Source of the DNA: Myxococcales bacterium
GTDB lineage: Bacteria; Myxococcota_A; UBA9042; UBA3505
Assembly (NCBI GenBank): GCA_963578775.1
Contig: CAUZEG010000005.1
Coordinates: 1 to 57,788, forward strand
Direction: 5' to 3'
DNA length: 57,788 bases
Both the position numbers and the translations under genes were made by a program. Below, in pieces: positions 1-8,953 of the stretch (its first letter is position 1; each line of letters starts with the position of its first letter). Below the pieces are notes generated by a model. The model made no database searches, was not told the DNA's origin, and was given only the letters and a program-made list of their open reading frames with translations.

Positions 1-3000
1 TGATTTTTGGAAGGAGATTTGCTTTAAATTTCTCTTTGTCTCCAATGAACCAATCGACCACGTCTGTACGGATATGCCCCACCGACTGTAATGGGTCGAA
101 GATGGCCCCACCCTCGGATGTACGACCGCATACCGGACCGACCTCGTCCTCACTTGGACCGTGGTAGCTGCCGGCCCCGTATTTCACGCCGTCTTTTTCG
201 CCGTCTTTCTTGTAAAAACCATATTGTTTGCCACTCTTGCCAGGTCCCACGACCTCACGAAACCAGAGAATGTTGGCTGGATCGTGTGCGGCATCGGTCC
301 GAAACGTTTTAACTGTTCTTCCCAGGATTGAGATCCTTGCCAAACCATCACGGGCGTAATTATTTTTGGCCACGATTTCTGCGAGACTTCCAGCGGGCGA
401 GTCAAGGATTACCCTTTCTTGTGAGGCCGATGCGGTTTCTTGTTCGGCGGCGGTCTCGGCGTTTTCGACCTTTTGGACTTCTTTGCGTTGCGCGGGCTCG
501 CTGGCACCGCTACCGGCCATGGAGTCTAAGAGGCCCTCGGCGGATTTGCCCTGGACGACCAGATCGGCCACGGCGTCGGCGTGTTGCTCGTATTTGTCGC
601 CGACCTCACCGACTCCGCCTTTAAGAGCGACACCCGCCCGTTGCTGCACCACATGCGCGGCCTCGTGGGCTGCGGTGTGGAGATCGGCTGAGCCCGCGAA
701 GGCCACATCGTTGCCCGAGGCGTAGGCCTTGGCGCCGATGGCCTTGCTGGCGTCGGCGGCTTTGCCACCGGTATGGGCCTGGACGCCCGTTACATCGTGC
801 TTGCCGAAGGAGGCCTGGATTTTTCCGAGATGGGGGAGGGACCCGCCAGAGCCTTCCACACCCATGGCGGCTGCGGCCTGAAGCTCATCGGCATCTTTGA
901 CTTTCTCACCATCGCGCTCTTTTTTCTGCAGTTTGAATTTACCTTTCTTGGCGCGCGCTTTGACCACGTGTCCCATGATCGCGAGCGACGTGGTTGCCAC
1001 GTTTTCCATGAAATCGGGGTTATCCCAACCGCCTTCCAATATTGCCTGTGTTTTTAATGACTTTGCGGTGACGGCTGCTTTGTAGGCTTTTGCGATAGCA
1101 TCGGGAGATGGAGTCAAGGTTGGTGGATTCGCCTTAATCATCGCTCTGTCGATGGTATCCTTGATGATATCAACCGGGGCCGTAGCGCCGAACTGCTTTA
1201 CGAGCACCTGGGCGATCTCGGTTTCGAGGAATTGACCCACTATCTTGTCGTTAATGGCGTCCAGCGATTCTTTGAGCAGGTATGCAAGGAAGATTGTCTT
1301 GGCTTCTTCCGGGCTAGTTGATTTCCCCTGAAGAATAAGGCGGTCGCCAACAACCGTCTTCGCGGTCTCAAGATAGACCTTGAAACCCGTAGCAATACTG
1401 CCGGCAACGTCTTCGGGGACGCCTGCTGCTAATAGGCCGCCTTCAAGGACCATTACCGCCGAATCGATTAGAATTCCTTGTGCGGCTCTAGCTGCCACCT
1501 CGGCGTCCTGGGCCGTGTCTCGCTCCCATTGATGGTTCCGATAGAGCCTGGCCATCTTATTGTCTTCGTCGGCCTGCATGGCTCCGATACCCGAATGCCG
1601 AGCATAGAAAAGATGTTCAATTCTGCTGGCGTCGGCTGTCGGCGTTCCGTTCTTGCTTACTTCAAGGACGTTATTCGTAATGCGCGTCTCAATGGTGCAT
1701 GAATAGTTATAGAGCGAGGAATATGCCTTTGCGAAATCACGATGTGCATCTTCCGTGGGCCCGCCGCGCTTGGTTTCCGATTGGTGGACGTTCGCTTCCC
1801 CTCGATAGAATCTTTTCTTCTTTTCAATCTTTGACGTCAGCCCCAGCAGTTTTTTGAACCAGAATTTCTTTGTCGCATCGTCTGCCTTGCTGTCTTTGCG
1901 TTGGACGGCGCGCTGGGTGGCGGCAGCCGCTGCGCCACCGGTAGCAGCAGCAGCACCCCTCGTGGCGGCGGGCGGGTCTTCTTCCCAATAATAAAGTTGG
2001 TGAATGGTGCCGAACCAGTCGCTCTCGGCGCGACTTTTATTCTCGGCCGCCCCTTCGCCAGTGACCGGGTTTCGCGTTCCAGACTGACGGCTGGTGGAGT
2101 TCTGCACCGCGAAGAGGATCTTACCACTGGGGGTATAAGCTATATGGGTAGTGTAGGAGCCGAGCATATGGGTTGTAAGAGAGGCTTGCGCCGTTTCTCG
2201 TGCGAATCCCAGGAAGCCGAACTTATAGAAGTGCTTTTCTGCACCAGTGGTCGCAAACGCCTGTCGGGCTTTGGCGACCCCTTCGTCATATCGTACGACT
2301 TTCGTCATCACCGAGGCCGGGCCAAACTTTACTTTCTCGGGGACCTTTACGTCGTTGCTGACAAAGGCTTCAGTAAGTCCGAGCGGGCCAAGGCTGGGAT
2401 CGCCTTCGGTATACCCGGCCAACATCGACTGTATACGTTGATACTTATTGGCCGGTGCGGCTCTGGTGTTGCCATCGGGATCTTTCTGTACGGCACGTTG
2501 GGTGGCCGGCTCGCTGGCACCGCTGCCGGCCATGGTGTCGAGGAGGCCCTCGGCGGATTTGCCCTGGACGACGAGATCGGCCACCGCATCTGCGTGTTGT
2601 TCGTATTTGTCGCCGCTTTCACCGACTCCGCCTTTGAGAGATACCCCCGCCCGTTGCTGGACGATATGGGCGGCCTCGTGGGCGGCCGTATGTAGGTCGG
2701 TGGAACCTGCGAAGGCTACGTCGTTGCCCGAGGCATAGGCCTTGGCGCCGATTTGCTTGGCTGCATCACCGGCTTTGCCGCCGGTATGTGCTTGTACGCC
2801 CGTGACATCGTGCTTGCCGAAAGAGGCCTGGATCTTGCCCAGGTAGGGTAGGGATCCGCCGGAGCCCTTCACACCGTCGGTCGCCACGGCCTGGACCCAA
2901 TCACCCGAGGGCGCGCCGGGGCCGTCTTCTTTGCGGAAGACCGCCGCCCCTGCTCCACCAGCGGCACCCCGCACACCGCTTGATTTGGCCATTTGCGCGA

Positions 3001-8953: not shown

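Follow-up and report, generated by a model that had tools for sequence, protein, structure and literature searches.

A single open reading frame (ORF) at the edge of a 57,788-nucleotide contig from a Myxococcales bacterium (GenBank assembly GCA_963578775.1, contig CAUZEG010000005.1) encodes five copies of DUF4157, the hallmark effector domain of extracellular contractile injection systems (eCIS), and variants of one short Val-Gln-Arg/Lys-like motif stand on both sides of every copy. The window analysed here is this complete contig (G000:C5:1-57788). Judged from sequence, the element on both sides of each module appears to be a selected short linear motif, and it is a general property of the DUF4157 family, single-module proteins included. 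Quite possibly, though short of probably, the ORF encodes an eCIS poly-effector in which five DUF4157/'PVC-metallopeptidase' modules and at least six unrelated cargo domains share one chain, and the motifs are autoprocessing sites cut by each module's own peptidase. Established here are the enrichment of the motif at module boundaries, its conservation in the family, the retention of the catalytic residues, the position of the motif at cassette borders and the presence of one N-terminal region per chain.

A five-module DUF4157 ORF and the motif at its module edges

The ORF lies on the minus strand at positions 2..9022 (Table 1) and is open at the window start. It comprises at least 3007 amino acids (aa) in 3007 codons and, because the assembly breaks at the contig start, the gene lacks its 3′ end. 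Translation likely starts at the ATG at 8953 (aa 24) rather than at the TTG at 9022 that the ORF list gives. Five DUF4157/eCIS_core modules with the signature HExxH-x21-ExxAD alternate with variable cargos. A Pfam scan of the ORF returned five stretches of PF13699 (eCIS_core, formerly DUF4157; E 2.7e-60, 200.9 bits against a cut-off of 22), and all five modules also scored above the PF13699 cut-off in a scan of the genome. Every module is followed by an unrelated segment. The other Pfam matches in the ORF were PG_binding_1 (aa 590-649), DUF5995 (aa 1614-1725) and a borderline Aspzincin_M35, and four of the six unrelated segments (cargos 1, 2, 3, 4a, 4b and 5) had no Pfam family. An N-terminal extension is present in the chain only ahead of the first module, and this charged region is a candidate loading sequence.

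The five modules carry HEAAH at aa 194, 767, 1375, 2115 and 2786, in each case within HEAAH[IV]VQQ (5/5), and ExxAD follows 21 residues past the second His. They match the signature described by Zhang et al. 2012 (PMC3482391), in which HExxHxxQ is followed by a glutamate on the next helix, and by sequence each module would be a small gluzincin-type zinc peptidase. The alignment of the modules spans approximately 126 residues, with 60-89% protein identity to module 4 and 74-88% DNA identity among the window copies. In all five modules the PF13699 model stops 15 residues before the ExxAD glutamate and some 55 residues before the motif that follows the module. Since it ends short of the glutamate helix, Pfam under-calls the conserved extent of the module.

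A first-pass annotation of the DNA had listed ten peptides at the module edges as candidate cleavage sites. All ten were found on the minus strand within the ORF, at the positions in Table 1, and every pair of a motif ahead of a module (pre-motif) and one behind it (post-motif) encloses a PF13699 match, which confirmed that the motif brackets each module and each cargo. The proposed VQR/VQK-like consensus is a loose one, as pre-motif 4 (AVFRKE) has F where the others have Q. The annotation had also placed most motifs behind flexible linkers. With a threshold of A/G/S/P >=0.5 in the 12 aa ahead of the motif, against a protein-wide value of 0.33, this held for nine of eleven sites and failed for pre-motifs 2 and 5. 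The pattern [VT]Q[RK] occurs 12 times in the 3007 aa, with 10 matches at module edges: eight lie in the 100 residues after modules, one in the 150 residues before and one at a module core start. The remaining two are in cargo. Both of the cargo matches belong to one junction-like site without a module, at aa 2369-2377 (nt 1892-1918), which was absent from the first-pass list and is referred to here as the orphan junction. The cargos proper are therefore free of the motif, with no match in 2127 cargo residues outside this junction, and the motif is not equally frequent inside the cargos, a point on which the annotation had made its own proposal depend. The modules are paralogous repeats, so these counts are not five independent observations.

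A comparison of the DNA of the five window copies separates the motif from its surroundings. The pre-motif forms a small island of similarity (0.53) amid stretches at 0.22-0.44 and is parted from the core by a diverged linker, while the post-motif closes a block of high similarity. Moreover, the codons of the motif vary synonymously between copies (CAA/CAG, CGT/CGC/CGG, GTA/GTC/GTT and AAA/AAG). Together, the island at the pre-motif and the synonymous codon variation indicate that selection acts on the peptide and not on DNA homology.

The motif across the DUF4157 family

A profile built from the five cores without their flanks matched 31,975 proteins at E <=0.001, and 3,743 at <=1e-30, among 1.84 billion representatives. 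The family counts given below rest on the best 150 of these 31,975 proteins, which are representatives at <=50% identity. A hidden Markov model pass over the best 150 yielded 217 modules, of which 185 full-length ones were used and 32 partial ones left out; one module was present in 101 of these proteins, two in 37, three in nine and five in three. As background we took 24-aa windows of the same proteins at more than 30 aa from any module (n=3790). Within windows of this size [VIL]Q was found after 176 of 183 modules and before 157 of 184, compared with 678 of the 3790 background windows. The stricter [VIL]Q[RK] was present after 129/183 and before 64/184 modules (background 118/3790), and [VILMT]Q.[KR] after 90/183 and before 105/184 (background 139/3790). 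Control patterns were at or below background beside the modules; this applied to [VIL]E[RK] (after 6/183, before 1/184, background 126/3790), to [VIL]N[RK] (0/183, 2/184 and 48/3790) and to the reversed [RK]Q[VIL] (6/183, 4/184 and 76/3790).

The overall consensus was [A/G/P]-V-Q-[R/K/A]-[K/R], with the copy after the module often doubled. Behind the modules it reads as a Gly-rich run followed by [A/G]-V-Q-R-[K/R]-[A/E/V]-[V/A]-Q-R-[D/E], where the distance from the profile end to the first Gln was 4-11 residues in 171 of 179 cases. Ahead of the modules it reads [P/A]-V-Q-[R/A/K]-K-[G/A], and the Gln precedes the profile start by 10-15 residues in 127 of 161 cases. The putative active site is likewise retained: HExxH is kept in 184 of the 185 full modules and the complete HExxH..ExxAD in 182.

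A second set was drawn from genomes of named species, mostly metagenome-assembled genomes of Myxococcota/Polyangia. It contained 84 module-bearing ORFs, 80 of them with one module, three with two and one with five, and [VIL]Q was present after 83 of 85 modules and before 73 of 86. Looser copies of the motif flank the classical, higher-scoring PF13699 domains of relatives. Two of 13 single-module proteins with short N-termini start exactly at the pre-motif.

By every sequence criterion tested, the window protein belongs to the DUF4157/PVC-metallopeptidase effector family. It shares with the described PF13699 eCIS toxins the Pfam match, the HExxHxxQ...E signature, a position N-terminal to variable toxin-like domains and the presence of eCIS genes in the genome (PMC3482391; PMC8213781). 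It differs from them in having five modules in place of the usual one, and in its defined flanking motif. Larger relatives were also observed among the metagenome representatives (P0002-P0005 and P0014) and in a 4093-aa ORF (L041); these are 3825-6000 aa long with 4-6 modules, and several have a degenerate first module (profile positions ~30-114, 22-28 bits) ahead of full ones.

Cassette borders, structural models and genome context

The orphan double motif is the eleventh junction of the chain and adjoins no DUF4157 module. Comparison with relatives placed it at a border between cassettes. Residues 1247-2374 of the window protein align colinearly (61% identity) with an ORF from another relative (L020), and the match ends inside the orphan motif; at this position L020 has a tandem motif array and then a different cargo. 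In a genome of the same genus, the N-terminus and first module are orthologous but the first cargo is another one, with the two sequences diverging immediately behind the post-motif, and the shared cargos come in a different order. Thus, the breakpoints of colinear homology with relatives coincide with the motif. In at least one case, a post-motif variant goes with the cargo and not with the module, the same variant preceding the same EF-hand-like cargo in two genomes. The double motif, searched as [VILT]Q.{2,3}[VIL]Q, was found after 56 of 183 modules, before eight of 184 and in 26 matches across the 3790 background windows beyond +/-30 aa, most of these 26 being unlike junctions. Because the double motif is rare away from modules, the orphan site is a feature of the lineage and not of the family.

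Shortened relatives of the module were also seen. The congener's ORF L017 (G001, contig C6; minus strand, 2358 aa) contains 'mini-modules' made up of a pre-motif, the ExxAD helix, a linker and a post-motif, without the HExxH half. Partial matches resembling such mini-modules (profile positions ~85-125) occur in four representatives (P0037, P0062, P0077 and P0092).

Module 4 with its flanks was modelled in two AlphaFold2 runs, one on a 73-row whole-protein alignment (run 1) and one on 87 rows trimmed to the module and its flanks (run 2). Both runs gave a confident core, with a predicted local distance difference test (pLDDT) above 90, consisting of three strands and helices that include the HExxH and ExxAD helices, and this layout agrees with the prediction of Zhang et al. 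2012. For the flanks, run 1 gave block means of 45-64, with the V-F of pre-motif 4 as a DSSP bridge; in run 2 the pre-motif was below 50 and the post-motif had block means of 60-72, with its V-Q as a DSSP bridge. The same two short core strands are present in both runs, one of which lies within the loop connecting the HExxH and ExxAD helices. The models thus give a weak hint of a single site close to the catalytic helices against which either motif could pack, a site that may or may not be the zinc cleft. The first-pass annotation had suggested checking with AlphaFold whether the motif docks in the zinc site: the models do give V-F and V-Q as bridge residues, at low to moderate flank confidence. 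A complex prediction of the module 4 core with zinc and a 40-aa peptide of the orphan junction scored 0.03 against a mark of 0.32, in a run without controls, and counts neither way. Since the motifs mostly follow G/A/S/P-rich linkers and have low pLDDT, they should be accessible.

The other genes of the window are not injection-system genes. Parts of an eCIS are encoded elsewhere in the genome: contig C104 carries tube genes together with two sheath genes, and a tube gene lies on C52. Contig C116 encodes an Afp15-like protein with two AAA domains (9003-11258), flanked by three DUF4157 ORFs. This contig opens in frame inside a DUF4157 module (G000:C116:1-3137, plus strand) and may be the continuation of the window gene, the assembly break evidently falling at the repeated modules. 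Of 41 genomes in the sample of relatives, the source genome included, 33 have PF13699. An Asp-Arg-Lys cluster lies within about 12 residues of the candidate start Met in three DUF4157 proteins, namely the window protein (8903-8953, minus strand) and those encoded by the C116 ORFs 4073-5749 and 11377-13218. It may be a system-specific N-terminal loading signal, and nothing like it is present at the internal modules of the poly-effector.

Cargo 1 contains a sixth HExxH (HEFSH; 7805-7819, minus strand) in its Aspzincin_M35-like region (30.3 bits against a cut-off of 30), with PG_binding_1 after it. Aspzincin_M35 is a family of lysine-specific metalloendopeptidases, and cargo 1 may be a peptidoglycan-directed or protease toxin. 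As a general processing enzyme this M35-like peptidase was rejected, the motif being family-wide and that cargo not. Internal translation starts ahead of the modules were rejected as well, as the five pre-motifs have no consistent Met before or after them. Upstream of the poly-effector by ~70-140 nt, on the same strand, lies a gene for an M1-family aminopeptidase N (9095-11734, minus strand), for which co-transcription with the poly-effector or a trimming role is possible. Further along, on the plus strand, three consecutive ORFs of 644, 291 and 855 aa without a Pfam match (11981-17357) are followed by one for a 1050-aa protein with a TLC/MFS-like transporter region, HEAT repeats and a C-terminal cyclic-nucleotide-binding domain (17358-20510).

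Table 1. Features of the poly-effector ORF (positions in the window).
Feature	Position	Strand	Basis
Poly-effector ORF	2..9022	-	ORF list, translation
N-terminal charged region, aa 24-105, ahead of module 1	8708..8953	-	no Pfam family
Pre-motif 1, PVQMKK	8690..8707	-	translation
DUF4157 module 1 core, aa 122-247; HEAAH at 194, ExxAD at 220	8282..8659	-	Pfam, alignment
Post-motif 1, GVQRAH	8249..8266	-	translation
Cargo 1, Aspzincin_M35-like region with HEFSH at aa 402, and PG_binding_1	6989..8248	-	Pfam
Pre-motif 2, VVQTKE	6971..6988	-	translation
DUF4157 module 2 core, aa 695-820	6563..6940	-	Pfam, alignment
Post-motif 2, TQKSVQRT (double motif)	6524..6547	-	translation
Cargo 2, no Pfam family	5165..6523	-	Pfam scan
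Pre-motif 3, ATQRKE	5147..5164	-	translation
DUF4157 module 3 core, aa 1303-1428	4739..5116	-	Pfam, alignment
Post-motif 3, TQRVVQKE (double motif)	4700..4723	-	translation
Cargo 3, contains DUF5995	2945..4699	-	Pfam
Pre-motif 4, AVFRKE (F replacing Q)	2927..2944	-	translation
DUF4157 module 4 core, aa 2043-2168; module modelled with AlphaFold2	2519..2896	-	Pfam, alignment, model
Post-motif 4, TQRAVQKD (double motif)	2480..2503	-	translation
Cargo 4a, no Pfam family	1919..2479	-	Pfam scan
Orphan junction motif between cargos 4a and 4b, behind an Ala/Gly run	1892..1918	-	translation, motif count
Cargo 4b, no Pfam family	935..1891	-	Pfam scan
Pre-motif 5, KLQKKE	917..934	-	translation
DUF4157 module 5 core, aa 2714-2839	506..883	-	Pfam, alignment
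Post-motif 5, QRKEVQKV	467..490	-	translation
Cargo 5, cut by the contig end, no Pfam family	2..466	-	Pfam scan

Candidate roles of the motif

If the motifs are autoprocessing sites, the chain would be loaded once, in one piece, into the eCIS via its single N-terminal region, and during or after delivery it would be split into module-cargo units or free cargos. Each module's own peptidase would recognise and cut the motifs flanking it, while the orphan motif, lying between cargos 4a and 4b, would depend on cleavage in trans. As the cargos are unrelated to each other, the flanks of the modules are the only constant candidate substrate. Processing is favoured by the boundary-specific enrichment, the conservation in two independent sets of proteins, the selection on the peptide, the catalytic residues kept by nearly all modules, the expected accessibility of the motifs, the colinear match that ends inside the orphan motif, the two proteins that start at the pre-motif, the N-terminal region ahead of module 1 only, the eCIS genes of the genome and the prediction of 2012, and weakly by the modelled bridges. 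That cutting would follow loading or delivery is suggested by the internal units, which have no N-terminal region of their own, the region that in AlgoCIS, unlike DUF4157, is required for loading (10.64898/2026.05.27.728243). Gluzincins as a class prefer a hydrophobic residue at P1′, so cleavage would probably fall just N-terminal to the Val. Carried to its full extent, this reading would make DUF4157 modules with [A/G/P]-V-Q-[R/K] sites a bacterial self-processing polyprotein, in which one loading signal serves a chain of more than 3000 aa, zinc-dependent cuts fall at module edges in cis, orphan sites being cut in trans, and at least six toxins are delivered per injection. This extended form would also settle the role of the hallmark effector domain, but we consider it a rather doubtful one.

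Several points weigh against processing at the motifs. We infer both the cleavage and the activity of the enzyme. The motif also flanks the module of single-module proteins and is thus not special to the polyprotein. Of nine modules lying within 45 aa of a C-terminus, and hence without a cargo, seven keep the post-motif, although some of these proteins may be gene fragments; in such module-terminal proteins a pure cargo-release site would be unneeded, because nothing follows that could be released. The flanks of module 4 were modelled at low to moderate confidence in either run. The profile of the five cores gave chance-level matches only against PDB sequences, the best (E 0.081) being to an unrelated methylase, and a Foldseek search of the PDB with model 1 of module 4 gave no match at E <=0.001. 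Moreover, the poly-effector gene runs off its contig, and its association with the eCIS is seen at the level of the genome. Published experiments point in the same direction: in AlgoCIS, deletion of DUF4157 does not stop cargo loading (10.64898/2026.05.27.728243); HExxH point mutants left the toxicity of Cgo1 in E. coli unchanged (PMC8894135); and DUF4157 proteins of Streptomyces bind spike and baseplate proteins (PMC11126660; 10.1101/2025.11.06.686954). The accessible parts of these AlgoCIS, Cgo1 and Streptomyces studies report no processed DUF4157 forms or cleavage products.

The Streptomyces interactions would suit a different role, in which the motif is an uncut docking signal. It would be bound by a constant part of the machine, such as an Afp15-like AAA+ unfoldase, the tube lumen or the spike complex, and would mark the engagement or anchoring of cargo while the chain stays whole. 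Copies of the motif found further upstream in the N-terminal regions of single-module proteins are consistent with such docking, as are the N-terminal requirement for AlgoCIS loading, the reported binding to, or co-purification of DUF4157 proteins with, spike and baseplate proteins, the motif kept by cargo-less modules and the Afp15-like ATPase among the DUF4157 genes of C116. Docking would, however, leave unexplained both the nearly invariant HExxH..ExxAD and the tight spacing between motif and module on either side. In addition, loading sequences are reported to be specific to each system, with no conservation from one system to another (10.64898/2026.05.27.728243), whereas the motif is conserved across many genomes, and we regard the docking signal as somewhat unlikely. 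Alternatively, the motif might act within its own protein, as an uncut latch or pseudo-substrate in or beside the cleft of its module that keeps the enzyme closed until delivery or completes the fold. Some minimal gluzincins are indeed blocked by their own C-terminal tail. The fixed, short spacing to the core, the retention of the motif in cargo-less modules and the likeness of pre- and post-motifs, each modelled in a different run as a bridge strand beside the same two core strands, argue for such a latch. It is nevertheless unlikely, given the low model confidence at the motifs, the orphan motif and the tandem array of L020 with no adjoining module, and the variable, glycine-rich linker that parts motif from core, so that the two are not contiguous.

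The motif could also be functionless, the conserved terminus of repeat units that recombination copies and shuffles, comparable to other junction motifs of polymorphic toxins. The modules are recent paralogues, as their DNA identity indicates, the cargo order differs between the source genome and its congener, and the assembly breaks at repeats. This explanation is nonetheless highly improbable. Conservation of the motif extends to representatives sharing <=50% identity and to many named genomes, the copies encode it with different synonymous codons, the sequence around the pre-motif island has diverged, and the post-motif variant before the EF-hand-like cargo travels with that cargo and not with the module.

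Processing at the motifs would have parallels in known systems. MARTX toxins are giant secreted chains with several unrelated effectors and with linkers that carry a short consensus site, and they release the effectors by an in-chain protease after delivery. The window chain resembles them, and polyproteins, in its eleven junction motifs that share a consensus between effector domains, mostly behind A/G/S/P-rich stretches. MARTX toxins have one cysteine protease, which is activated by inositol hexakisphosphate and cuts after Leu, whereas the window chain has a zinc-peptidase module before nearly every cargo, its delivery by a phage-tail-like eCIS being presumed and its cleavage putative. Viral polyproteins similarly embed a protease bracketed by its own consensus site, with further sites between other products, but the window protein is cellular, its predicted peptidase is a zinc enzyme and not a cysteine, serine or aspartic one, and the chain has many copies of it. 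That the chain works like a MARTX toxin or a viral polyprotein is an analogy. The VENN motif of CdiA and the motif of MafB (PMC4436062) are likewise short motifs at a border between constant and variable regions that coincide with cassette exchange in polymorphic toxins. Their sequence and domain are different, and the window motif stands on both sides of the constant module and alone between two cargos. The Rhs aspartyl autoprotease is a further case of a polymorphic-toxin junction.

The idea of autoproteolytic release is already in print. Zhang et al. 2012 (PMC3482391, section 13) predicted from positional polarity that the PVC-metallopeptidase is a 'releasing peptidase' for autoproteolytic toxin release, and they also describe a second copy of the domain at the C-terminus, as well as very long toxins that combine multiple toxin domains. 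In 2021 DUF4157 was proposed to act in 'loading, release, maturation, or trafficking', its function was called elusive in 2024, and the matter was not settled in 2026 (10.64898/2026.05.27.728243). In the accessible parts of the DUF4157/eCIS literature (PMC8213781, PMC11297309, PMC8894135, PMC4436062, PMC11126660, PMC11566945, PMC12067865, PMC12210884, PMC3482391, 10.64898/2026.05.27.728243 and 10.1101/2025.11.06.686954) we found no definition of a flanking motif or cleavage site. Nor did we find there a description of five- or six-module chains. The search covered main texts and not supplements such as those of Geller 2021 (Supplementary Fig. 15) and Zhang 2012 (additional files), which may show multi-module architectures or alignments that take in the motif. 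A search of the literature from 2019 on for an autoproteolytic metallopeptidase in contractile injection systems found none. What is described here is the flanking motif, and the finding is not categorically new.

DUF4157 is the most widespread marker of eCIS effectors, with reports from 13 phyla and a share of 51.5% among predicted eCIS toxins, and a family-wide motif at fixed distances from the module makes the prediction of 2012 precisely testable. If the sites are cut, engineers of programmable injection systems would learn where the native cargo parts from the loading part, and the chain would show how several payloads can be strung together. If they stay uncut, the motif remains the best starting point for identifying the binding partner of DUF4157.

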